Below are positions 40,318 through 61,898 of a DNA stretch of 64,000 bases, piece after piece. Every line of letters begins with the position of its first letter. Position 1 is the stretch's first letter. Made by a program: the position numbers and the translations under genes. The stretch spans positions 158,695 through 222,694 of the forward strand of contig JBFXHX010000001.1 in the NCBI GenBank assembly GCA_050176585.1. The letters run 5' to 3'. The notes under the pieces were generated by a model that worked only from the letters and a program-made list of their open reading frames with translations, had not been told where the DNA came from and made no database searches. The stretch comes from Candidatus Binatia bacterium (GTDB taxonomy: Bacteria > Desulfobacterota > Binatia > HRBIN30 > CADEER01).

Positions 40318-40872
40318 ATGCCCGCACCAGATCCGCGTATGATCGAACTGCTCAGCTACTACCGCGAGGCGGAGCTGCACGGCGCTTCGCTGCTGTTGCG
40401 GTTGGTCAAGCTGATCGACGACCCCGAGGCGCAGATCAAGCTCGCGCTGCACATCCACGAGGAGACGCGGCACGCGTGGCTGTGGACCAAGCGCATCCAC
40501 GACCTCGGCGGCGCGCCGGTACAGGTCACCGACGGATACCAGACCCGCATCGGCTTGCGGACCGTTCCGAGATCGCTCATCGAGCTGCTCGCCCTGACGC
40601 TGGTCGTAGAGGAGCGCTCGTTCACCCGCTACAAGGAACACGCGGGGCGCCCGGACGTCGACGAAGCGACGCTCGCCATCCTCAAGGACGTGTCGTCCGA
40701 TGAAAAATGGCATATGTCCTGGATTCGGCAGAAGCTGTTTGCACTGGCTCGGGCTGAAGGCGACGAGTCGAAAGCCCAGGCCGCGATCGACAAGTACGCG
40801 CGCATCGACCGCGAGGTATACGGCGAGCTGAAGGCGAAGGAAGTGGCGGCGTTCGGCGATGCCGTTGCCTGA
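40318..40872 (+). CDS. Ferritin-like diiron-carboxylate domain protein
   Basis: GAGGAA SD. Two ExxH motifs (HEETRH, DEKWHM) and an additional EE pair, giving a four-helix ferritin-like pattern. No TM segment. Confidence 0.5.
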   Translation: MPAPDPRMIELLSYYREAELHGASLLLRLVKLIDDPEAQIKLALHIHEETRHAWLWTKRIHDLGGAPVQVTDGYQTRIGLRTVPRSLIELLALTLVVEERSFTRYKEHAGRPDVDEATLAILKDVSSDEKWHMSWIRQKLFALARAEGDESKAQAAIDKYARIDREVYGELKAKEVAAFGDAVA

Positions 40873-40892: not shown

Positions 40893-41912
40893 GTGGACGT
40901 CGCCGCGGACTCCGCCCCCCGGCGTGACGGCGATCGCGGTCCGGAGGCCGAAGGAAAGCCCACCGCCACCGACTGGCTCGAGTACGCGGTGCTGCGCACC
41001 GCGGTCGGGTTCTTCGGTTTGTTGCCGCGCGGCTGCGCGCTCCGCGCAGGCGCCTTCCTCGGTGAGCTGTTCTACGTTTTGCACCGGCGCGGCCGCGCGA
41101 TCGGCCTGCGCAACCTGGCGATTGCCTTTCCCAACCGCGGCCCGGCAGAGCATCGCGCGATTCTGCGCGCTTCGGCGCGGAACCTCGGCCGCCTCGGCGC
41201 GGAGATTTGCCACCTACCCGCGCTGACACCGGAGACCGTGCGCCGATTCGTGGCGCCCGCCGATTCGGCCGCGTGGCATGCCGCGCTCGATAGAGCCGCG
41301 CGAACTGGCGGCGTCATCCTGACCGCCCACCTCGGCAACTGGGAGCTGCTCGCCTACGTACACGGACTCCTCGGTTATCCCATCACACTGGTCCACCGCC
41401 CTATGCGCAATGCGCTGGTCGATGCCTACATCACGCAGATGCGCGCAGCGGCGGGGACGGTGTCGTTGTCGAAGAAAAACGCCGCCAAGGCGGCGTTGTA
41501 CGCCTTGCGCAGACGGCAGCTACTGGCAATTCCAGCGGACCAGAACCAGACGCGCCGTTACGGCGTGTTCGTCGATTTCTTCGGCCTGCCCGCGTGTACG
41601 ACCGCGGGCCCGTCGCGCATGGCCATGCTGAGCGGAACCCCCCTGCTACCGGTGTTCCTCGTGCGGGACGGCGAGAGCGATCAGCACCGGATACTCGTGC
41701 TGCCGGATATCGAGCTCGTGCATACCGGCGACCGCGAAGCCGACGTGCTCACGAACACGCAGCGCTGCACGGCGGTGATCGAGGACATGCTGCGCCGCTA
41801 CCCGGAGCAGTGGATCTGGTTCCACAAACGCTGGAACACGCGTCCACGCGGCGAGCCGCGCGTGTATCCGGTGAGAAGGTCCAACGCGAAGTCGCCAGGC
41901 ATTCTACCTTAG
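40893..41912 (+). CDS. Lipid A late acyltransferase family protein (LpxL/HtrB-like), copy 2
   Basis: GTG start. HX4E motif (TAHLGNWELL) and the same C-terminal signature (QWIWFHKRW). Confidence 0.65.
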   Translation: MDVAADSAPRRDGDRGPEAEGKPTATDWLEYAVLRTAVGFFGLLPRGCALRAGAFLGELFYVLHRRGRAIGLRNLAIAFPNRGPAEHRAILRASARNLGRLGAEICHLPALTPETVRRFVAPADSAAWHAALDRAARTGGVILTAHLGNWELLAYVHGLLGYPITLVHRPMRNALVDAYITQMRAAAGTVSLSKKNAAKAALYALRRRQLLAIPADQNQTRRYGVFVDFFGLPACTTAGPSRMAMLSGTPLLPVFLVRDGESDQHRILVLPDIELVHTGDREADVLTNTQRCTAVIEDMLRRYPEQWIWFHKRWNTRPRGEPRVYPVRRSNAKSPGILP

Positions 41913-41967: not shown

Positions 41968-43179
41968 TTACGCGGCGGCAGCGCACTCGTTCAGCGACTG
42001 CTCTATCGCCGACAGCGCTCGCTCGCTATCGCGATCGCTGATGATCAGCGGCGGCGCGAGGCGCACGACCGTGTCGCGGTGGAGTGTCCAGCCGAGAATG
42101 AGCCCGTGCGCCAGCGCAGCGCGGCAGAAGCGCTCGGTGTAGTCGGGCGCGGCGAACTCCAGCCCGATGAGCAGCCCGCGCCCGCGCACCTCGCGCAGCG
42201 CTGGCCCAACCGAGCGCGCCAGCCGCGCTTGCCACGCTTGGCCGAGGCGCGCGGCCCGCGCCGGAAGGTCCGCGCAAACCGCGAACTCGAGCGCCGCCAG
42301 TCCGGCGCTGCAGGAGAGCGGATGGCCCCCGAACGTGGTGACGTGTGCCAGGGCGGGGTCATGGGAGAGTGAGGACATCAGCTCTGGGCGTCCCACGAAC
42401 GCGCCGAGCGGCAGACCTCCCCCCAGCGCCTTGGCCAGCAGCAAGAGATCCGGCGCCACACCCCAGTGCTGGCACGCGAACCACGTGCCGGTGCGGCCGA
42501 GCCCAGTCATCACCTCATCGAGCACGAGCAGCGCGCCGACCGCGTCGCAGCGCTCGCGGAGCGCGGGGAGGAATCGGGGGCGCGGCACCCGCACTCCGCC
42601 CTCGGCTTGGATCGGTTCGACCACGACCGCCGCCGTGCGCTCGTCGATGCGCGCGAGCGACTCCACATCGTCGAACGGCAGGAACTCGACGTCCGCCAGT
42701 AGTGGCTCGAAGGGAGAGCGGTAGGTCGGGTTGTCGCACAGCGACAGCGATCCGGTCGTGTCCCCATGATAGCCGCCCCGGAACGCGAACATGCGCCGGC
42801 GCCCCGTCACCTTGCGCGCCAGCTTGATCGCGCCTTCGACCGCTTCGGTGCCGCTGTTGGTGAAGTACGCGACGGAGCAGTCGCCGGGCGCGAGCTCCGC
42901 GAGGCGCCGCGCCAGCGCTACCTGTGGCTGGAGCACCGCCTCGCCGTATACCATCACGTGTAGATAGCGCTCGGCCTGGGCCTGTAGCGCCGCGACGACT
43001 TCGGGATTGCAATGGCCGACCCCGGCGACGCCCATGCCAGAGAGTAGGTCGAGGTACTCGCGGCCCTCGACGTCCCAAATCGAAGCGCCTTCGGCGCGCG
43101 CGACGACTATGCCGAGGGGCGCCGGCGACGTTTGGCAGACGTAGCGCACGAAGTCGCGCCGCAACTCCTCAGGGTGCAT
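41968..43179 (-). CDS. Class III (omega-type) PLP-dependent aminotransferase
   Basis: Start at the ATG of MHPEELRRDF. Class III AT signatures (FTNSGTEAVEGAIKLARK, LVLDEVMTGLGRTG, and the PLP lysine in LLLAKALGGG). The 555 nt upstream in the track ORF overlap luxC and are not part of this gene. Confidence 0.8.
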   Translation of the reverse strand: MHPEELRRDFVRYVCQTSPAPLGIVVARAEGASIWDVEGREYLDLLSGMGVAGVGHCNPEVVAALQAQAERYLHVMVYGEAVLQPQVALARRLAELAPGDCSVAYFTNSGTEAVEGAIKLARKVTGRRRMFAFRGGYHGDTTGSLSLCDNPTYRSPFEPLLADVEFLPFDDVESLARIDERTAAVVVEPIQAEGGVRVPRPRFLPALRERCDAVGALLVLDEVMTGLGRTGTWFACQHWGVAPDLLLLAKALGGGLPLGAFVGRPELMSSLSHDPALAHVTTFGGHPLSCSAGLAALEFAVCADLPARAARLGQAWQARLARSVGPALREVRGRGLLIGLEFAAPDYTERFCRAALAHGLILGWTLHRDTVVRLAPPLIISDRDSERALSAIEQSLNECAAAA

Positions 43180-44578
43180 CGGGCTCCTCGATCCATGCGC
43201 CGACTCGCGGTCGGCCGCCGGGCCGCCAGTCGAGCGGCGGTCGTTGCATCTCGCCGAGTCCCGCCACGCGGTGCACGCCCCAGGCGGAGAGCTGTTCTGC
43301 GCACCGCGGCCAACGCTCGGGAGGCGCGGCGAGGCCTGCGGCTTCGAGCCATGGCCGGATCGGGCCGAGCAAGGCGGCGAGATCCGTCCAGTGTTGGAGC
43401 GGGGCAACGCTGAGCGTGCGGCCGAGCGGCGACGGCCGCAGCGCGGGCTCCGCGGTGACGCGCACCGTGCCGGCGGCTTCGTCCGGTAGCGCGAACAGGT
43501 GCGAGGGTTCGCCAGCGAACGCCGCCCACTCCGCCTCGTCACGGAATCTCCGGATCGCCAAGCGATCGCCCAATGCGAGGCGCCCAGGTGGGAGCTCGCG
43601 CGCCTGGGTCGCGAGTGCGCGGAAGACGCGCGCGCCGAAATCCATCGCGAGCTCGAAATCCCCTTCGACGAGGCAGAGCTGCGGCGAGAGACAGCCGCGC
43701 TGATCCCACACCGCGGTATCCAGCGCCAACCCACTCGCGGCGTGGTCTGCCGCGCTGAGATCGGCGGCGACGTCGCGGGTGATGACGGCGAAGCTCAGCC
43801 GGTCGCCGTAGCCGATCAGCCGGCCGCGAGCGCGCCGCGACAGGTCCGCGATGGCCTCGTCGCCGCCGGACGCGACCACCAGGTCGACTGAGGAGAGGAC
43901 GACGTCCTCGCACGCGCGATCGCCGCCCGGCCAGTAACAGGCGGCGATGCACCGCCCGAGATGTTCATCCCGCTCCGCGATGCTCTCGGCAAACAACAGC
44001 GGAAAGAGGCGATCGCCCGCCGCGGCTTTCAGCAACGGCGCGGAGCCGATCGCGAGCGAGAGCGCGGCTGGAATGGCGGCCTGGGCGGGCAGGTTGCCGG
44101 GCAGCACGTGCAGGATGATATCGGGCCCGCCGCACGTGCCGACCTCGGCCTCGAGTAGATGGCTGAGCGCCGGCGCCCGCAGCGGCGCGAGCATCGTCGG
44201 CAACGCATGGCGGATCATCTCCGGCGAGAATCCGGTGGCGGCGGGCAGCGCAGCGAGGGCGCGCGCGAACCACGCGGAGTCGGGGCGCAGCCATGCGTCG
44301 ATCACCATCTCGATCGCGCCGAGCACGGCCTTCCGCGGCCGTGAGCGGAAAGCGCGCGTGGATCGGAGCTGCTCGATGATGCGCGCGAGCTCCGCGGGGG
44401 TCGTCGCCGAGCTTTCCGTCATCGCGGTGCTTTCGAACGACGACGGCGCGGCTGCGCCGCCCGCTGTGCTCGCTGGGGGGTCCAGCTCGTCCGCTGAAGC
44501 CGGCGATGCGGGCACGACCGGTGCGGGACCGGTGCCGCGCATCACGCGGCGCCCCACTCCGCGGTTGCGAGCGAGCAC
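43169..44578 (-). CDS. LuxC-family acyl-CoA (acyl-protein) reductase
   Basis: About 470 aa. Resembles the LuxC fatty-acyl reductase family in length and Cys-containing core, by family recall. Its 3' end overlaps the aminotransferase start by 11 nt. Confidence 0.55.
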   Translation of the reverse strand: MLARNRGVGRRVMRGTGPAPVVPASPASADELDPPASTAGGAAAPSSFESTAMTESSATTPAELARIIEQLRSTRAFRSRPRKAVLGAIEMVIDAWLRPDSAWFARALAALPAATGFSPEMIRHALPTMLAPLRAPALSHLLEAEVGTCGGPDIILHVLPGNLPAQAAIPAALSLAIGSAPLLKAAAGDRLFPLLFAESIAERDEHLGRCIAACYWPGGDRACEDVVLSSVDLVVASGGDEAIADLSRRARGRLIGYGDRLSFAVITRDVAADLSAADHAASGLALDTAVWDQRGCLSPQLCLVEGDFELAMDFGARVFRALATQARELPPGRLALGDRLAIRRFRDEAEWAAFAGEPSHLFALPDEAAGTVRVTAEPALRPSPLGRTLSVAPLQHWTDLAALLGPIRPWLEAAGLAAPPERWPRCAEQLSAWGVHRVAGLGEMQRPPLDWRPGGRPRVGAWIEEPDAP

Positions 44579-45690
44579 CCCCGCTCCTCGGCTTGCGGGG
44601 CGCGGCCGAGCAACTGGAAACCGTCGCCGGCGGCGACTGCCAGATCCTCCGACAGCACGGCCATGGCGCTGCTCGCGTTCGCAAGATCGAAGTGGCAGAG
44701 CAGGCCCGGCGTGTCGGGCGCGGCGGCGGCGAGTGTCTCGGGGTCGAGCACCACCGGCCGTACCCAGTGGGGGGCCAGCTTACGGCGCGGCGCGTGACGG
44801 CCGCGCACGCGATCCGCGATGACGCTGTCGTAGTACTGGCTCGACAGCTCGGCCATGCCGTACTCGTTGACGCAGAAGTAGCCCGGGACGGCGAACGCCG
44901 CCCACACCGCGTGCAGCAAACCGGCGCGCGAGAGCGGCCGCGGCGCTCCCTTGTCACCGCCGGTGTCCATCACGCGGCTGCCGTGCGGCAGTCGGAACGC
45001 CAGGCGGCGCTCGCGGAGCGTATCGATGGCGCGGATCAGCGCGCCCGTGGTGGTCAGCAGCGCCAATGGCGCGCCATCGCTCTGGCTCGCATGTAACGCG
45101 TCGAGCAGGCGCTCCAAGTCGAGGCCGCCGGCACCGGCGGCATACGCACTACCCTCGGCGCCGAAGCTCTCCATTGCCCACTCGATCATCTGCGACAGCG
45201 AAGAGTGCGGTTGTTCTTCGGCCGGGGGGATCAGCGATACGAGTCGCATGCGGGCCTGGTCCGGAAAGACGAAACGGCGCAGCCCAGCCACCGCCGAGCG
45301 CTGGTAAAGGCGCAGATCGGCGACCTGGTGGCACGAGCGCACCTCGGGGCCGGCGGTCGTGCCACTGGACAGAAAGGTCCGCACCGCTAGCCCACAGCAG
45401 AGGGCGGTGTGCTTGAAAGCGATGATCGGCACGGCGGGGATCGCGCGCCAATCGCGCACGGTCTCCGGCGTGCGCTCGCGCTGCGCGCAGTAGCGCCGGT
45501 AGGCTTCGTTGTGCTCGAACTGGTGGACAAAAATGGCTAAGGCGAGGTCCTCGAATCGATCCGCCGCGGCGTCGTCGATGTAGGCCAGCACGCGCTCGTA
45601 CAACGGCAGCACGGCGGCAAGGTAGCATGGGTCCAAAGTCCGGCAAACGCGGTCGAATGGCTTGACACGCTCCGCACGGGGCGCCAGCAT
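44542..45690 (-). CDS. LuxE-family acyl-protein synthetase
   Basis: About 380 aa. Recalls the LuxE acyl-protein synthetase family (N-terminal FxxHQxxxNxxYRxY-like FVHQFEHNEAYRRYC). Its 3' end overlaps the luxC-like start by 37 nt. The start codon is uncertain. Confidence 0.55.
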   Translation of the reverse strand: MLAPRAERVKPFDRVCRTLDPCYLAAVLPLYERVLAYIDDAAADRFEDLALAIFVHQFEHNEAYRRYCAQRERTPETVRDWRAIPAVPIIAFKHTALCCGLAVRTFLSSGTTAGPEVRSCHQVADLRLYQRSAVAGLRRFVFPDQARMRLVSLIPPAEEQPHSSLSQMIEWAMESFGAEGSAYAAGAGGLDLERLLDALHASQSDGAPLALLTTTGALIRAIDTLRERRLAFRLPHGSRVMDTGGDKGAPRPLSRAGLLHAVWAAFAVPGYFCVNEYGMAELSSQYYDSVIADRVRGRHAPRRKLAPHWVRPVVLDPETLAAAAPDTPGLLCHFDLANASSAMAVLSEDLAVAAGDGFQLLGRAPQAEERGCSLATAEWGAA

Positions 45691-45717: not shown

Positions 45718-46800
45718 ATGGAACGATCGAGTATCTTAGTCATCGCCGTCGTTGTCGCCGCGCTCGCTTTGTTTGGACTCCGGTTCCTGGGCGGTGGCGC
45801 TGACGACACAACCCTGATTGCCAGCCGTCCCGGTGTAGACGGGGTCGATGCCTCGGGCGCGACGACGCGGGACGGCGAAGCGCAGACGCGGTCGGGCGAC
45901 CAGCGGCGCAGCCGGCTGGGTGCCGTGCCGGGCAGCCGGCGCGACGGGCAGACGGTTGGATCCGATCGATTCACCGGCTCGGGGCGTACCGGGACGGGCT
46001 CTGGCGCATCGGCGTATTCGAGCGGACGCTCGGTTGGGAGTGCGCTCGGCTCCTCGGGCAGCAGCGCGCGCAACGCGGCGGGCGGCGGCAGCGCGGGGAT
46101 CGCCGCAGATGCGTCCGGCGGTCGGCTCGGGCCGCGCGCACAGCGGAAGGACAACCTGGTGGATTCGCTGAGCGAGATGCCGCAGACGCACAGCGACCTC
46201 GAAAAGCCGCCGGTGCCGGACGACGGCGACGAAATCGCCCTCAAGGTGGATAAGCCCGAAGACATCACCGAGCAACAAGGCCAGGATCAGGACGTCCACA
46301 ATCCGGATGACGGCACCGAAGGCATCAAGATCACCGATCGCGGCCGCATCGAGTTCCCGAACGCTGGCAACGCCAACGGCGATGCCGGCACGATCTCGTT
46401 CCGCATCAAGCCGGAATGGGCGGGTGCGGATCACACGGACAATGCGCTGGTGCAGATCCGCAACGAAAACGAATGGAACAACCGGCTCGAGCTGGTGAAG
46501 AACGGAGAGTTCCTCCGCTTCATCATCACCGACGACACCGGCAAGGAAGCCGACATTAGCACGCGCATCACCAACTGGCAGAACCTCGAAGAGCACGACG
46601 TCACGGCCACATGGGGCGACGGCCGGACGACGCTGTATATTGATGGGCAAGTGGTCGGACAGAACGAATATTCCGGCAACCTCCGCTTCGCGGAGGGGAC
46701 GCCGATGTTCCTCGGCGCGGACTGGCGCGGCAGCGCATACGCGGGTGCCAACGCCACGCTGAACGGGTTCACGCTCAGCACTACGCCGAGCCATCCCTGA
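45718..46800 (+). CDS. Membrane-anchored or secreted protein with a C-terminal LamG/concanavalin-A-like domain
   Basis: N-terminal TM or signal anchor (ILVIAVVVAALALFGL). About 130 aa of Gly/Ser/Arg/Thr-rich low-complexity linker. C-terminal jelly-roll-like domain (ISFRIKPEW...LYIDGQVVG...FLGADWRGS). Confidence 0.6.
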   Translation: MERSSILVIAVVVAALALFGLRFLGGGADDTTLIASRPGVDGVDASGATTRDGEAQTRSGDQRRSRLGAVPGSRRDGQTVGSDRFTGSGRTGTGSGASAYSSGRSVGSALGSSGSSARNAAGGGSAGIAADASGGRLGPRAQRKDNLVDSLSEMPQTHSDLEKPPVPDDGDEIALKVDKPEDITEQQGQDQDVHNPDDGTEGIKITDRGRIEFPNAGNANGDAGTISFRIKPEWAGADHTDNALVQIRNENEWNNRLELVKNGEFLRFIITDDTGKEADISTRITNWQNLEEHDVTATWGDGRTTLYIDGQVVGQNEYSGNLRFAEGTPMFLGADWRGSAYAGANATLNGFTLSTTPSHP

Positions 46801-58372: not shown

Positions 58373-59476
58373 TCACAACAGCGCGAGCTGATCTCCCGCG
58401 CGAGGCGGGCGGCGAAACGCATCAGCGGAGAGCGGTGGCAGCGGTTGGTCGAGGCCGCGCCGCCGCGCCGCGAGCGCGAACAGATCGCGAATCTGCGCGG
58501 CGTACTGTCCGCACCCGCGCATGCGGCGGCCGAACCGCGTATCGTTCAAGTTCCCGGCGCGGCATTCGCGAATGCGGCCGAGAATGCGGATGGCCCGGTC
58601 CGGGTAGTGGCGCTCGATCCAATCGCGGAACAGTTGGTCGAGAGGGGAAGCGAGGCGCAGGAGTGTCCACGCGGCGCTGCGCGCTCCCGCTTCGGCGGCG
58701 CGTTGCAGGATGGCGGGAATCTCGTGATCGTTGAGGCCTGGGATCACTGGCGCGGTCATCACCGCGACGGAAATGCCGGCGGCGGCAAGGGTGGAGATCG
58801 CCTGCAGGCGGCGCTCCGGCGTGGCTGCGCGAGGCTCCATGCGGCGGGCGAGCTCGTTGTCGAGCGTCGTGACGCTCACGTATACCCGCGCCGCTCCAAA
58901 TCGAGCGAGCTCGCCCAGCAGATCCACATCGCGCGTCACCAGCGCGGACTTGGTCACGATGCTGACCGGATTGCGGAACTCTGCGAACACCTCCAAGCAG
59001 GCACGCGTCAGCCCGAGCCGACGCTCCACCGGCTGGTAGCAGTCGGTGTTGCCCGAAAGCGCGACCGTCTGCGGCGTCCAGCGCGGGGAGGCGAAGGTCT
59101 CGCGGAGCAGCGCCGCGACATCCATCTTGACCAGCAGCTTGCGTTCGAAGTCGAGCCCGGCGCTGAAGCCGAGGTATTCATGCGAGGGCCGCGCGTAGCA
59201 GTAGATGCAGCCGTGCTCACAGCCGCGATACGGGTTCAGGCTGAAGCGAAACGCCAGATCGGGGCTGTCGTTCTCGGCGAGCGCGCTCTTGCTCGCGTCG
59301 CGATACAGCTCGGTGGGCGTGCGGGGCGCGCCCCCTTCGAGCTCTGCTCCGCTCTCCTGGTCCGCTTCATCGCACTCGATGTGGAGCGGTTCGTAGCGGT
59401 TCGGCGGGTTCAGCCGGGTGCCGCGGCCCTCCAGCGGTGGCTTGGACATGGCAACTTTCGCCTTCTGTTCTCTCAT
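58373..59476 (-). CDS. Radical SAM protein, PA0069/SplB-like (DNA repair photolyase-like)
   Basis: CxxxCxxC cluster (CEHGCIYC), N-terminal GRGxxxNPxNR motif, elongated TIM-barrel-like core. The start is at M34 or M43 (59449). Confidence 0.7.
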   Translation of the reverse strand: MREQKAKVAMSKPPLEGRGTRLNPPNRYEPLHIECDEADQESGAELEGGAPRTPTELYRDASKSALAENDSPDLAFRFSLNPYRGCEHGCIYCYARPSHEYLGFSAGLDFERKLLVKMDVAALLRETFASPRWTPQTVALSGNTDCYQPVERRLGLTRACLEVFAEFRNPVSIVTKSALVTRDVDLLGELARFGAARVYVSVTTLDNELARRMEPRAATPERRLQAISTLAAAGISVAVMTAPVIPGLNDHEIPAILQRAAEAGARSAAWTLLRLASPLDQLFRDWIERHYPDRAIRILGRIRECRAGNLNDTRFGRRMRGCGQYAAQIRDLFALAARRRGLDQPLPPLSADAFRRPPRAGDQLALL

Positions 59477-59711
59477 GCTTTCGGCGTTTGGGCAAGTGGT
59501 CCGACCCGGTTCGATGAGCGCGTAAACGGCCATACAGGAGCCGAGCCCGCGCCGGCGCCGCGGATTCGGTGGCACACCGAGTCGTCCGTCCCGGTGTATT
59601 CCAACGCAGGGTGGGGTGAGCGCGGGGTATTAGACGGACGAACACGCGGATTGCACACGGCGCTGCAGGGTCGCGTGCCGCGCGGGCCCAGTTCTCTGTC
59701 CGGGGCCGGAC

Positions 59712-60272
59712 TTATGTCGCCGGTCTATGCCAGGACGCGGCGAGTCGCACGCGCTGCGTGAGCAGGAACCAGAGCAGGAACGGCAGTGCTGCATAGCCGA
59801 CCAGCCCGTAGAACGCATAGAAGATGTCGATCACGCGGTTGATGCGCCGCATCCACAGCTGCCCGAGCCGCGCCTGCGGCATGCCGGTCATATACGGTCC
59901 GAGGACCGCCAGCCCGACGTGGAAGACGAACAGGACGGCGAGGCCAATCGCCGCGGCGCGCAAGCGGCGCCGGGCCGGCAGACCCGAAGTCGCGCCGAGC
60001 AATGCGCAAAACGGTATGACGCCCGAGAACAGCTCGCGGGGCTGGAAGGGCATCATGACTTCGGTCTGGTCGCGTCGCATCACGACATCCAACCCGCGGG
60101 GCGTCGGCTGCGTACGCACGACGTGAAATCCGCTGGTCACCCGCATCAAGGGGTTGGCGACCGCCACCACCGCGCGCCCGTAGGCATCGCCCAGGCCGGC
60201 AAACGACCACAGCGCGAAGAAGAGCGCCGCCAGTGCGAAGAATCTAAGCAGAAACCCGGTTGACGGCCGCAC
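59712..60272 (-). CDS. Polytopic membrane protein of unknown function
   Basis: 186 aa, 4-5 predicted TM helices. Overlaps the upstream membrane-protein gene by 29 nt. Confidence 0.4.
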   Translation of the reverse strand: MRPSTGFLLRFFALAALFFALWSFAGLGDAYGRAVVAVANPLMRVTSGFHVVRTQPTPRGLDVVMRRDQTEVMMPFQPRELFSGVIPFCALLGATSGLPARRRLRAAAIGLAVLFVFHVGLAVLGPYMTGMPQARLGQLWMRRINRVIDIFYAFYGLVGYAALPFLLWFLLTQRVRLAASWHRPAT

Positions 60273-60783
60273 GGCGTACCTGTTCCGTCCACAGAGAGGC
60301 GAGAAACGCCAACAGCGCGATGAATAGCCCTTGGAAGAAGTACTCGTGGAAGTAGTCGAACCACTCGGGGTACTGGCTGGCGACCAGCGTAAGCACGACC
60401 AGCCGCGCGAGGTTGATGGCCATCAGCACGGTCGCCCCCACGGCAATGCCGGCGGTGCGCTGTGCGGCGGGCGCCGGGTAAGCCAGGACGAACACGGCGT
60501 AGACGAGCAGCACGAAAACACCCGTGCACTCGTGATTGATGTCGAGCGCGGCGTACTGCGTCTTGATGATCGTGCCCTCCACCACCGCGTCGGCCGAGAA
60601 CCAATTGGCCGCTGCGGCGACGGCGCTCGCCATCCCGACCTGCAGGGGGCGCATGTGCAAATGCAGGCCGCCCACGGAGAAAGCGAGGCTGGCGATGAAC
60701 AGGTAGAGCGCCAGCCGGATGACGAAGCCGGAAAAGGTCGGCGCCGCGCTGTGCGGCTGAGCGGAGCGGGCGCGGCGCGCCAT
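60244..60783 (-). CDS. Polytopic membrane protein with an ECTG motif (possibly exosortase-like)
   Basis: Start at the ATG of MARRARSAQ. About 4 TM helices. The INHECTGVFVLL motif is reminiscent of the exosortase/archaeosortase catalytic Cys region, a weak resemblance only. Confidence 0.35.
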   Translation of the reverse strand: MARRARSAQPHSAAPTFSGFVIRLALYLFIASLAFSVGGLHLHMRPLQVGMASAVAAAANWFSADAVVEGTIIKTQYAALDINHECTGVFVLLVYAVFVLAYPAPAAQRTAGIAVGATVLMAINLARLVVLTLVASQYPEWFDYFHEYFFQGLFIALLAFLASLWTEQVRRAAVNRVSA

Positions 60784-60888
60784 GATCCGCCCCACCTTAT
60801 CCGTTATGCATTGCGAGTTCCACGTCGCAAACGCGCGGCGCGCACCGTCTGGTTGCAATGGGCACGGGCCATTCCTATCGTCTGCGCC

Positions 60889-61086
60889 GTGGCTACGTCC
60901 GCGCGCAGCGCCAACTGCTGTCCCATCTGTCGGGCGCCGATCGCGGGGCAGGACAATCCGCACCGGCCGTTCTGTTCGGAGCGCTGCCGGATGGTCGATC
61001 TCGGCAACTGGGCGGCGGAGCGCTACCGGGTGCCCGAGCGAGCGCCCGAGGACGACGAGCCCGACGGCGGCGGCTCGGCGCACTGA
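60889..61086 (+). CDS. yacG: YacG-like zinc-ribbon protein (DNA gyrase inhibitor family)
   Basis: CPICRAPIAGQDNPHRPFCSERCRMVDLGNWAAE closely follows the YacG consensus (CPxCxK...PFCSxRCxxIDLGxWAxE). GTG start. Stop overlaps the lpxA ATG (TGATG). Confidence 0.6.
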   Translation: MATSARSANCCPICRAPIAGQDNPHRPFCSERCRMVDLGNWAAERYRVPERAPEDDEPDGGGSAH

Positions 61087-61898
61087 TGCCGATCCACTCG
61101 ACCGCCCTGGTCGACCGGCGCGCCGAGATCGATCCCGCCGCGGACATCGGCGCTTTTGTCGTGATCGACGGGCCCGTCGTTGTGGGCGCGGGCACGCGCG
61201 TGTTGCCGTATGCCCACCTCAGCGGCCGGACCGAGATCGGTCGCGACAACGTAATCCACATGGGCGCCGTCATTGGTCACGCCCCACAGGACCTCGGATA
61301 TCGCGAAGCGCCGACGGCGCTGCGGATCGGCGCCCGCAACATCATCCGCGAGCACGCGGAGGTCCACCGCGCCACGAAGCTCGAGCACCCGACCACCGTC
61401 GGGGACGACAATTTTCTTTTTGCCCGTTCGCACATCGCCCACGATTGCCGGCTCGGCAACCGCATCATCGTGGCCAGCGGGGCGCTACTGGCCGGCCACG
61501 TCCAGGTCGGCGATGGCGCGAACGTCTCCGGCAACTGCGTGGTGCACCAGTTCGTTCGCATCGGGCGTTTCGCGCTGTTGCGCGGGGGATCCCGCACCAG
61601 CCGCGATGTCCCGCCGTTCGCGCTGATGGACGGCACGCACACGGTCCGCGGCATCAACCGGGTGGGTTTGCGCCGGGCCGGGTTCGTCGCCGAGCGCATC
61701 CGCGCCATCGAACGGGCGTATGTCGCGCTCTTCCGCACCCGCCGTAACCTGGGTGCGGCTCTGGCCGAGCTCGAGGCGGGTCCGTTGACTGACGACCTCG
61801 CCGAGCTCGTGGCGTTCATCCGCGCGTCCCGCCGTGGAGTGTGCTTCGGGCCCGCGGCACGTCACGCCGAATTCCCCGATCCGGCCGAGGACACCTAG
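61086..61898 (+). CDS. lpxA: Acyl-ACP--UDP-N-acetylglucosamine O-acyltransferase
   Basis: Hexapeptide-repeat left-handed beta-helix with the LpxA N-terminus (IHSTALVDRRAEIDPAADIGAFVVI) and a C-terminal helical domain. The longer track ORF upstream is antisense junk. Confidence 0.8.
   Translation: MPIHSTALVDRRAEIDPAADIGAFVVIDGPVVVGAGTRVLPYAHLSGRTEIGRDNVIHMGAVIGHAPQDLGYREAPTALRIGARNIIREHAEVHRATKLEHPTTVGDDNFLFARSHIAHDCRLGNRIIVASGALLAGHVQVGDGANVSGNCVVHQFVRIGRFALLRGGSRTSRDVPPFALMDGTHTVRGINRVGLRRAGFVAERIRAIERAYVALFRTRRNLGAALAELEAGPLTDDLAELVAFIRASRRGVCFGPAARHAEFPDPAEDT

Follow-up and report, generated by a model that had tools for sequence, protein, structure and literature searches.

The window analysed here, 64,000 nt of core chromosome (GC ~68%) on contig JBFXHX010000001.1 of a Candidatus Binatia bacterium, carries three consecutive minus-strand genes for a LuxE-like acyl-protein synthetase, a LuxC-like acyl-thioester reductase and a class III aminotransferase (AT) (Table 1). 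Motifs and gene order give good support for reading this trio as a self-contained module that would reduce a carboxylic acid to an aldehyde and aminate the aldehyde to a primary amine. The AT sequence is identical to that of an NCBI protein from a Binatia metagenome-assembled genome, and genomes of the same kind gave the best matches in the genome collection. The most useful result is an AT-coupled variant of a thiamine-linked LuxE/LuxC subfamily that is conserved in several uncultured phyla. The module appears to be a chromosomal, housekeeping-like trait of Binatia that is also present in Nitrospirota, Eisenbacteria, Myxococcota and Spirochaetota.

Profile searches placed the three genes in the LuxE, LuxC and Aminotran_3 families rather than in unrelated ones, as a preliminary description of the locus had proposed. 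The LuxE-like protein matched PF04443 with 62.4 bits (cutoff 24.9), residues 34-376 covering profile positions 26-386 of 391. It also matched PDB 7xc6_E (Photobacterium LuxE), with its C-terminal RGCSLA aligned to the acyl-Cys motif KGCSLS. The motifs SSGTT, GGxK (K247), GR (R363) and RGCS (C372) were at least 95% conserved in 60 LuxE homologues, K247 and R363 being the equivalents of the LuxE adenylation residues Lys238 and Arg355. Its length, 382 aa compared with 373 aa for LuxE, agrees with the absence of the ANL C-terminal subdomain. We infer that this protein adenylates a carboxylate and then forms a thioester with its own C-terminal Cys372. It scored 34.3 bits against the NCBIfam LuxE equivalog (the NF052244/NF052251 pair), versus a cutoff of 550, and so falls outside that narrower class.

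The LuxC-like protein matched PF05893 with 155.7 bits (cutoff 21), and profile A1 matched PDB 7xc6_A with an E-value of 3e-23. The catalytic Cys, within the motif WDQ(R/Q)GCLSP (WDQRGCLSPQ in the window), aligned to the catalytic Cys of 7xc6_A and was conserved in 73/73 sequences, the motif having helped to choose the loci from which these sequences came. Membership of the NCBIfam LuxC equivalog was again not supported (39.3 bits versus a cutoff of 750). In a partial alignment to the long, L-shaped hydrophobic cleft that takes a C14 chain in LuxC, the equivalents of the entry site were non-polar (S166, T169, Y291 and F297 being replaced by G/Q, A, W and L), the distal cleft residues L107, W111 and M114 were replaced by H, T and E/A in the trio family, and the C-terminal cleft segment was not alignable. 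An exhaustive profile search gave 4236 family representatives, among which one long protein of 871 aa stood out as a probable LuxE-LuxC fusion (P0380); a second possible fusion is L077 (796 aa). A Rosetta-stone search over the same 4236 representatives yielded no informative additional domain.

The third protein is a class III transaminase, with 351 bits against PF00202. Its best NCBIfam match, acetylornithine transaminase (ArgD), gave 365 bits where 457 are required, and the LysJ equivalog gave 334 bits against a cutoff of 700, so that membership of neither class is supported. The best PDB matches were Thermus thermophilus LysJ (1vef, 312 bits) and Escherichia coli putrescine aminotransferase (277 bits), and the transaminase domain of PigE is homologous as well (300 bits with NCBIfam; PDB 4ppm, 222 bits). 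The segment LAKALGGG, which we take to contain the lysine that binds pyridoxal phosphate (PLP), aligned with an identical segment of LysJ and PatA. EPIQAEGG and VRLAPPL were also present; we take these to be the Glu/Arg dual-recognition pair that marks glutamate-using omega-transaminases. At the substrate site, GGYHGDT aligned to FSGRT of LysJ and FHGKS of PatA, placing an Asp where LysJ has Arg and PatA has Lys. This Asp ((Y/F)HGDT) was invariant in all group-A AT orthologues, and Leu or Val occupied the position in group-B ATs. The LysJ-type Arg, equivalent to R180 in human OAT and to R141 in GabT of E. coli, binds the substrate carboxylate. Because it is replaced in the AT, the aldehyde substrate probably has no carboxylate at that site. 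In BioA the position is typically held by an Asp, which lies opposite an amino group.

Catalytic motifs are thus intact in all three proteins. In the proposed mechanism, LuxE would use ATP to convert a free carboxylic acid to an acyl-AMP and transfer the acyl group to its own C-terminal Cys. The acyl group would then move to the catalytic Cys of LuxC, where reduction with NAD(P)H would release a free aldehyde, and the AT would place an amino group on that aldehyde. Glutamate is the likely donor, since the presumed Glu/Arg dual-recognition residues are present.

The arrangement of the genes is compatible with translational coupling, though less extensively than first described. An 11-nt overlap between LuxC and AT was confirmed: the AT ATG lies at 43179, the LuxC stop TGA at 43171-43169, and a ribosome-binding site (GAGGAG, 43189-43184) precedes the AT start by 4 nt. 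The 37-nt overlap previously given for LuxE and LuxC is doubtful, as it depends on the longest-ORF LuxC start, GTG 44578. A start at ATG 44422 (417 aa, with a 119-nt spacer to LuxE) is at least as likely and probably the correct one, because the ~52 N-terminal residues read from GTG 44578 showed no conservation among homologues and the segment 44423-44539 has no codon-position GC bias. Another alternative, ATG 44542, would leave a 1-nt overlap of LuxE and LuxC. Scans for terminators and promoters and folding of the 55-nt convergent spacer beyond the AT gave only background-level signals.

We examined conservation of the trio in 81 loci (78 genome loci encoding LuxC relatives and three contigs), in which LuxE, LuxC and AT were positioned by tblastn with the window proteins; a crude gene caller erred in some of the high-GC loci. 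The AT lay directly 3' of LuxC in 26/28 Binatia-type loci that could be assessed, among which LuxC identity fell as low as 38% (a count that includes L006, missed by the script owing to gene overlap), and in 5/5 loci of the Nitrospirota/Eisenbacteria type, so the adjacency on which the preliminary description relied is kept in orthologous loci. In the Myxococcota/Spirochaetota/TMED88 group the order was permuted to AT-LuxE-LuxC in 10/11 loci. The AT of this group is only ~40% identical to the Binatia-type AT and, among solved structures, is closest to putrescine and GABA aminotransferases rather than to LysJ, which suggests independent recruitment. Linkage of one enzyme pair to two types of class III transaminase, each in its own gene order, is strong evidence of functional coupling and speaks against a chance ArgD neighbour. 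Nor is the trio a chance pattern of ORFs: dozens of independent genomes carry these genes side by side.

The remaining clades differ in the partner. In ~27 Verrucomicrobiota loci LuxE and LuxC were kept, in some with a major facilitator superfamily (MFS) gene between them, and an adjacent AT was found in 0/27. QueD followed LuxC in 23 of these loci (within L036-L074), usually within ~60 nt; this is a bona fide QueD (TIGR03367, 105 bits, cutoff 89; CxxxHGH motif), and the linkage possibly ties this reductase family to 6-carboxypterin or 7-deazaguanine chemistry. The partner enzyme therefore alternates by clade, being AT in the trio clades and a short-chain dehydrogenase/reductase (SDR) in the cultured relatives described below, with neither beside Verrucomicrobiota LuxC. 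Alternation of AT and SDR would be expected if a free aldehyde is passed on.

We considered whether the AT could be a housekeeping ArgD, or an unrelated transaminase, that sits beside LuxE/LuxC by chance while the aldehyde goes elsewhere, as in Verrucomicrobiota. Acetylornithine transaminase is its best NCBIfam match, JGI annotates the AT orthologues as acetylornithine/succinyldiaminopimelate aminotransferase, and the gene is absent from beside LuxE-LuxC in the Verrucomicrobiota loci. However, the score misses the ArgD cutoff, an invariant Asp replaces the substrate Arg, the LuxC/AT overlap is accompanied by a strong ribosome-binding site, the adjacency persists across phyla, and a second AT subfamily is linked in another gene order. 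Chance adjacency is highly improbable in our estimate, and identity with ArgD itself was rejected on the basis of the score (365 versus 457 bits) and the missing substrate Arg.

The closest cultured relatives of LuxE and LuxC connect the subfamily to thiamine. In neighbour-joining trees and an identity table, the family fell into five about equidistant clades, namely Binatia, Nitrospirota/Eisenbacteria, Myxococcota/Spirochaetota, Verrucomicrobiota and a riboswitch type, with inter-clade identities of 34-40% for LuxE and 26-35% for LuxC and with lux proteins far outside. Of 51 LuxE residues that are invariant (at least 95%) across trio and Verrucomicrobiota sequences, 42-46 are also present in riboswitch-type proteins, against 24 in lux LuxE. 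A tblastn search of a plasmid collection returned 27 records matching window LuxE (33-41% identity), and 27/27 also matched LuxC (25-35%). Scores in the plasmid library were 187-229 bits for LuxE and 105-134 bits for LuxC, and in the fetched riboswitch-type loci 209-250 and 147-167 bits. All six plasmid records examined, from Azospirillum, Pantoea, Priestia, Niallia and Lactiplantibacillus, contained LuxE-LuxC-SDR operons. The layout is LuxE-LuxC-SDR in Pantoea and either LuxE-LuxC-ABC transporter-SDR or permease-LuxE-LuxC-SDR in the others. The ABC substrate-binding protein of Azospirillum is NMT1/THI5-like (ThiY family, 160 bits), Priestia shares the same ABC operon layout (layout only, its binding protein lying outside the scan), and the Firmicute permease is a Xan_ur_permease (NCS2). 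A thiamine pyrophosphate (TPP) riboswitch lay just upstream in 5/6 of the loci (L082-L085 and L087) at 59.6-85 bits, above the Rfam gathering score of 54.3, as a tandem pair in Niallia. PGAP labels these operons as fatty-acid CoA ligase and bioluminescence acyl-CoA reductase.

These TPP-riboswitch operons are the only members of the subfamily with regulatory evidence, and the trio LuxE and LuxC probably belong to a subfamily that is distinct from the bioluminescence reductase and tied to thiamine metabolism in cultured bacteria. They share with the structurally characterized Photobacterium phosphoreum LuxC-LuxE complex (PDB 7XC6; PMC9157457) the two folds, the adenylation Lys/Arg pair, the acyl-Cys motif TRxxKGCxLS (...ERGCSLA in the trio) and the LuxC catalytic Cys in DQxxC. 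They differ from it in overall identity (20-24%), in missing the equivalog cutoffs, in having no luxA/B/D/G partner among the larger window ORFs run against Pfam, and in the distal positions of the hydrophobic cleft, which are unconserved in the partial alignment. The riboswitch-controlled operons resemble the trio in a LuxE 33-41% identical over its full length and in the LuxE-LuxC order followed by one aldehyde-consuming enzyme. They differ in that this third enzyme is an SDR, which would yield an alcohol, and in the presence of a TPP riboswitch and of importers (ThiY-like ABC or NCS2), whereas the trio has an AT and neither importer nor riboswitch. Neither SDR nor importer was found in the window or its orthologous loci, which have the AT instead; in some Verrucomicrobiota there is an MFS gene.

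The SDR of such operons would correspond to OarX, as a putative orthologue of the Corynebacterium glutamicum protein. OarX is a thiamine-associated protein flagged since 2002 whose function is unsolved; reduction of the carboxyl group of PCA (the thiamine-pyrimidine acid), MTA or thiamin acetic acid has been proposed as its role, and in C. glutamicum, where only an oarX-fmnO operon is described, it gave no phenotype (Oliveira-Filho, Rodionov & Hanson 2024, PMC11223231). Pairing of a LuxE/LuxC carboxylate reductase with an SDR may be the answer to the function of OarX in thiamin salvage.

What acid does the trio act on? The preliminary description favoured a fatty acid: LuxE and LuxC would make a fatty aldehyde and the AT a fatty amine for use in an envelope lipid. 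On this model the neighbouring LpxL-type acyltransferases would incorporate the amine into lipid A or a different lipid of the envelope. Membership of the Pfam LuxE and LuxC families, whose characterized members take a C14 acid, is consistent with this, as are the lack of a carboxylate-binding Arg in the AT and the Leu/Val at that site in group B. There is also a direct precedent, in that TabE, a LuxC-like acyl-ACP reductase (ACP, acyl carrier protein), and TabA, a class III transaminase, make dodecylamine for the tambjamine BE-18591 (bioRxiv 10.1101/2025.08.11.669332). Pairs of this type share with the trio the path from thioester to aldehyde to primary amine, in which a class III transaminase acts after an aldehyde dehydrogenase (ALDH)/LuxC-like enzyme or a thioester reductase. 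Their substrates, however, are bound to ACP or to a polyketide synthase (PKS) within secondary-metabolite clusters, while in the trio the acid would be activated by a LuxE-type self-acylating synthetase in a core-genome context. TamH, PigE, MxcL and CpkG are further precedents for reductive amination. The trio does not look like a natural-product cassette: no ACP, PKS, nonribosomal peptide synthetase or tailoring gene was present in the window or among the annotated conserved neighbours.

Several findings count against a fatty acid. The equivalog scores lie far under their cutoffs, L107, W111 and M114 of the LuxC distal cleft are replaced in the partial alignment, and the closest cultured relatives are thiamine-regulated and carry pyrimidine/nucleobase importers. 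No ACP, thioesterase (LuxD), acyltransferase or lipid transporter was a conserved partner of the trio in the synteny set. Luciferase and LuxD families were missing among the larger window ORFs run against Pfam, a survey that included no scan aimed at them and left several small ORFs and the 55.4-56.7 kb region outside. We consider the fatty-acid route quite unlikely; the acid-to-aldehyde-to-amine logic of the preliminary description stands on the intact motifs, but its choice of substrate is not favoured by the equivalog scores, the 20-24% identity to lux proteins or the thiamine-regulated relatives.

The proposed envelope role fared no better. The last gene of the trio does end 55 nt, stop to stop, from the second LpxL-like gene, with kdsB, kdsA and kdsD upstream, as described before. 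The LpxL-184aa-LpxL-KdsD-KdsA adjacency, which speaks for an envelope role where it is retained, was found only in L001, L005, L008, L009 and L029 and was always convergent to the trio. Where the flank was long enough to judge, LpxL lay inside it in 5/23 Binatia-type loci, against 0/31 loci of other groups, its occurrence being limited to loci whose LuxC is at least 50% identical to that of the window. Elsewhere the trio lies beside Dtd/SpoU, GroEL, pheA/tyrA, gpsA, suf genes or an rRNA operon. Since the synteny over 81 loci is convergent and confined to close relatives, a functional link to lipid A was rejected, and the envelope link is lineage-local synteny, nothing more; adjacency to lipid A genes in one genome is weak evidence of an envelope role. 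The closest precedents for such a role, likened here by family and not by sequence, are RfbN/WbeN of Vibrio cholerae O1 (3-deoxy-L-glycero-tetronate) and the luxE/luxC genes of Aeromonas flagellin glycosylation, LuxE/LuxC-family members of non-luminous bacteria with proposed acyl processing for cell-surface glycans. Those genes lie in O-antigen or glycosylation islands with ACP, ligase, glycosyltransferase and acyltransferase genes, none of which is conserved with the trio.

Our best explanation, held with a little less than even confidence, is that the trio reduces and aminates a small cofactor-derived amino-N-heteroaromatic acid, not a fatty acid; the heteroaromatic substrate is a best guess and is speculative. 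Taken jointly, the Asp at the AT substrate site and the sister clade's pyrimidine/nucleobase importers would point to an amino-substituted N-heteroaromatic acid. To our knowledge, the only fitting metabolites with an aminotransferase as the last step are 4-amino-5-aminomethyl-2-methylpyrimidine and preQ1. We rank the thiamine-pyrimidine route first because the family holds regulatory evidence, and preQ1 second because QueD is linked in Verrucomicrobiota and the trio sits in a constitutive housekeeping setting. In the first route, PCA would be converted to the 5-formyl pyrimidine and then to 4-amino-5-aminomethyl-2-methylpyrimidine, with the AT standing in for the SDR that makes an alcohol in the riboswitch-controlled relatives. 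4-Amino-5-aminomethyl-2-methylpyrimidine is the compound that TenA turns into hydroxymethylpyrimidine (HMP). It is possible, though doubtful, that the trio constitutes an undescribed core pathway from a heteroaryl carboxylic acid to an aminomethyl heterocycle, either an HMP route feeding TenA or a preQ1 route without QueC and QueF.

A number of observations weigh against the thiamine-pyrimidine reading. First, Rfam at its gathering score revealed no riboswitch, either in the window or in 31 further trio and Verrucomicrobiota loci, and around the trio Rfam gave nothing relevant at E-values up to 1, while the same tool found the controls in L082-L085 and L087. Second, no thiamine gene, transporter or tenA was found among the annotated conserved neighbour clusters and other neighbours of the trio, and the Verrucomicrobiota clade couples LuxE-LuxC with QueD rather than with thiamine genes. 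Third, de novo biosynthesis would suit a constitutive, nearly universal module without a transporter better than salvage does. Fourth, the riboswitch type is only one of five clades in trees without bootstrap and is ~26-40% identical to the others, and substrates may differ by clade. Fifth, PCA gave no rescue of HMP-requiring C. glutamicum, in which only the oarX-fmnO operon is reported (PMC11223231). Lastly, the substrate assignment draws on comparative context and is speculative.

The preQ1 route, taken by itself, would lead from 7-carboxy-7-deazaguanine (CDG) through 7-formyl-7-deazaguanine to 7-aminomethyl-7-deazaguanine and bypass QueC and QueF. Conversion of a heteroaryl carboxylate to a heteroaryl aminomethyl group is exactly the net chemistry of the trio, QueD follows LuxE-(MFS)-LuxC in the 23 Verrucomicrobiota loci, the family's inferred preference is for amino-N-heterocyclic acids, and the constitutive housekeeping contexts include tRNA-related genes (Dtd, SpoU methylase, and a PolyA_pol/HD nucleotidyltransferase that is maybe CCA-adding). 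Yet the QueD-linked clade is the very one without an AT, the QueD adjacency may be lineage synteny as with LpxL, and no queE, tgt or preQ1 riboswitch was found near the trio. We therefore regard this route as very unlikely.

A small aliphatic or amino-acid-derived acid is unlikely too. In this alternative an omega-amino acid would give a diamine, as from GABA to putrescine, or glutamate would give glutamate semialdehyde and then ornithine or 5-aminolevulinate, with LuxE/LuxC in place of ProB/ProA, ArgB/ArgC, Ask/Asd or HemA. The AT is closest to LysJ/ArgD and putrescine aminotransferase, and the series ArgB-ArgC-ArgD and LysZ-LysY-LysJ follow the same order, in which the carboxylate is activated, then reduced to a semialdehyde and finally transaminated by a class III enzyme, LysJ/ArgD being the nearest AT structures. 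The Asp at the substrate site, as in BioA, suits a neighbouring amino group; the context is housekeeping, with neither transporter nor riboswitch; a zinc-dependent alcohol dehydrogenase (Zn-ADH) gene comes directly after the AT in 7 deep Binatia loci and nearby in 2 more; and in V. cholerae tetronate synthesis LuxE-domain proteins are proposed to act on a C4 hydroxy-acid. In the Arg and Lys series, however, the carboxylate is phosphorylated rather than adenylated and bound as a thioester, and the trio AT scores under the ArgD and LysJ cutoffs and lacks the alpha-carboxylate-binding Arg of ArgD, OAT and LysJ. Diamines made with ATP and NADPH would moreover cost more than those made by decarboxylation, nothing indicates loss of the canonical enzymes in trio genomes, and the LuxE signature residues are common to the thiamine-regulated clade.

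The pathway could also run in the catabolic direction, the AT deaminating an amine, LuxC oxidizing the aldehyde to a thioester and LuxE releasing the acid, possibly with a yield of ATP. An AT next to an aldehyde dehydrogenase is the standard layout of amine catabolism, as in PatA/PatD and GabT/GabD, and LuxC belongs to the ALDH superfamily. Characterized LuxE/LuxC pairs, on the other hand, act only reductively and consume ATP, in the relatives a TPP riboswitch governs both enzymes along with an SDR and importers, an arrangement in keeping with salvage or biosynthesis, and no catabolic regulator or transporter was found at the trio. We find this direction scarcely credible.

If the module works as proposed, it would be a compact, ACP-independent conversion of a free carboxylic acid to a primary amine and a core trait across several largely uncultured phyla. 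The preliminary description knew of no pathway with this gene combination; we too found no description of the LuxE-LuxC-aminotransferase trio in searchable papers, but its logic has precedents such as TabE/TabA. Kinship with the TPP-riboswitch operons bears on a vitamin B1 question more than 20 years old, the function of OarX: if the reading is true, the sister LuxE-LuxC-SDR operons would show that the substrate class of OarX is an activated heteroaryl carboxylate, reduced to an alcohol. Azospirillum, Pantoea and Priestia, which have the full operon, are maybe more informative for OarX than C. glutamicum, where oarX-fmnO is described with no activating enzymes. For biocatalysis, the family would add new two-component carboxylic-acid reductases and partner transaminases.

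Table 1. Coordinates of the trio, its neighbours and related loci.
Feature	Sequence	Position	Strand	Remarks
LuxE-like acyl-protein synthetase	window	44542-45690	-	PF04443, 382 aa
LuxC-like acyl-thioester reductase	window	43169-44578	-	PF05893; longest ORF, 469 aa
Class III (omega-type) PLP aminotransferase (AT)	window	41968-43179	-	PF00202, 403 aa; ArgD/LysJ/PatA-like
LuxC/AT translational-coupling junction	window	43169-43189	-	ribosome-binding site, ATG and overlapping TGA seen in sequence
Second LpxL-like gene	window	40893-41912	+	stop 55 nt from AT stop, convergent
184-aa gene	window	40318-40872	+	between two LpxL-like genes
LamG-domain gene	window	45718-46800	+	divergent from LuxE
Radical-SAM gene	window	58373-59575	-	
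Exosortase-like gene	window	60244-61083	-	
LpxA-like gene	window	60858-61898	+	
LuxE-LuxC-SDR operon	L082	6466-12592		
LuxE-LuxC-SDR operon	L083	6415-9960		
LuxE-LuxC-SDR operon	L084	1390-6321		
LuxE-LuxC-SDR operon	L085	2513-8105		
LuxE-LuxC-SDR operon	L087	4598-10638		
LuxE-LuxC-SDR operon	L086	4808-10644		
Verrucomicrobiota LuxE-LuxC with QueD	L037	3196-7196		example
Eisenbacteria LuxE-LuxC-AT near rRNA genes	L080	1-5285		
Zn-ADH after AT, deep Binatia	L031	12500-14131		example
~148-aa gene	L015	7560-8165	-	
~148-aa gene	L017	6605-7072	-	
~148-aa gene	L020	8996-9433	-	
~148-aa gene	L022	540-983	-	
~148-aa gene	L030	7173-7613	-	
~148-aa gene	L031	9409-9852	-	

Clustering of ~1080 neighbour ORFs gave lineage-specific housekeeping neighbours only (Dtd, SpoU, GroEL, the suf operon, folK, cysH, pheA/tyrA, gpsA, Der, PolyA_pol/HD nucleotidyltransferase and TetR), with no thiamine, queuosine, polyamine or lipid genes among the annotated clusters. 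The deep Binatia layout is Dtd-DUF-SpoU-LuxE-(small opposite-strand gene)-LuxC-AT-Zn-ADH-DUF4079; in other deep Binatia, LuxC-AT lies beside pheA/hisC-like/tyrA or gpsA, and the Myxococcota group is flanked by folK or cysH upstream and Rrf2-sufBCDS downstream. In an Eisenbacteria metagenome-assembled genome (L080), LuxE-LuxC-AT begins ~600 nt 3' of the 23S-5S rRNA genes, a sign of a core-genome site that is probably well expressed.

The Zn-ADH of the deep Binatia is of the polyol/threonine-dehydrogenase type (411 aa) and co-directional with the AT in L011, L018, L024 and L030-L033, and the membrane protein DUF4079 is next in most of these seven; the enzyme is possibly an alternative, aldehyde-reducing branch. 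The small gene between LuxE and LuxC in deep Binatia, conserved at ~148 aa on the opposite strand, splits the trio into two transcription units. It has no Pfam or NCBIfam match, its core reads FCAYHLGI...YRFQNIHQVAKRFG...IKQLL, and it may be a regulator. A Binatia subclade (L014, L021, L026 and L027) has LuxC, mostly with the AT (not in L026), and no LuxE within 10 kb, in the context of pheA with a class I/II aminotransferase and tyrA, or of gpsA; its LuxE must lie elsewhere or be replaced.

In the window, the plus-strand genes upstream of the trio are kdsB, pyrG, kdsA, kdsD, an LpxL-like gene, the 184-aa gene and the second LpxL-like gene. The 184-aa gene, which also lies between two LpxL-like late acyltransferase genes in L001, L005, L008 and L009, is kept in every related locus with the LpxL pair where it is callable. 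Its product has only a weak ferritin-like Pfam match and two ExxH motifs (EETRH, DEKWH) with upstream Glu residues, the signature of a four-helix-bundle di-iron oxygenase. It may be a hydroxylase or desaturase that acts on lipid A acyl chains independently of LpxO.

On the far side of LuxE are a divergent LamG-domain gene, GroEL, RmuC and a family-B DNA polymerase. The LamG gene encodes a membrane-anchored protein whose long, disordered linker is rich in Gly, Ser and Arg and whose C-terminal domain is LamG (Laminin_G_3), and its pairing with the trio is retained in ~14 Binatia loci. It starts 27 nt from the LuxE start, which leaves scarcely any space for two promoters, and the annotated start of the LamG gene, of LuxE or of both may be wrong. 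Further along the window, a radical-SAM gene and an exosortase-like gene lie near an LpxA-like gene, which places one more lipid A gene, apart from the others, ~15 kb away from the LpxL pair. Taken as longest ORFs, the exosortase-like and LpxA-like genes overlap by ~225 nt, so at least one of their starts is probably mis-set.

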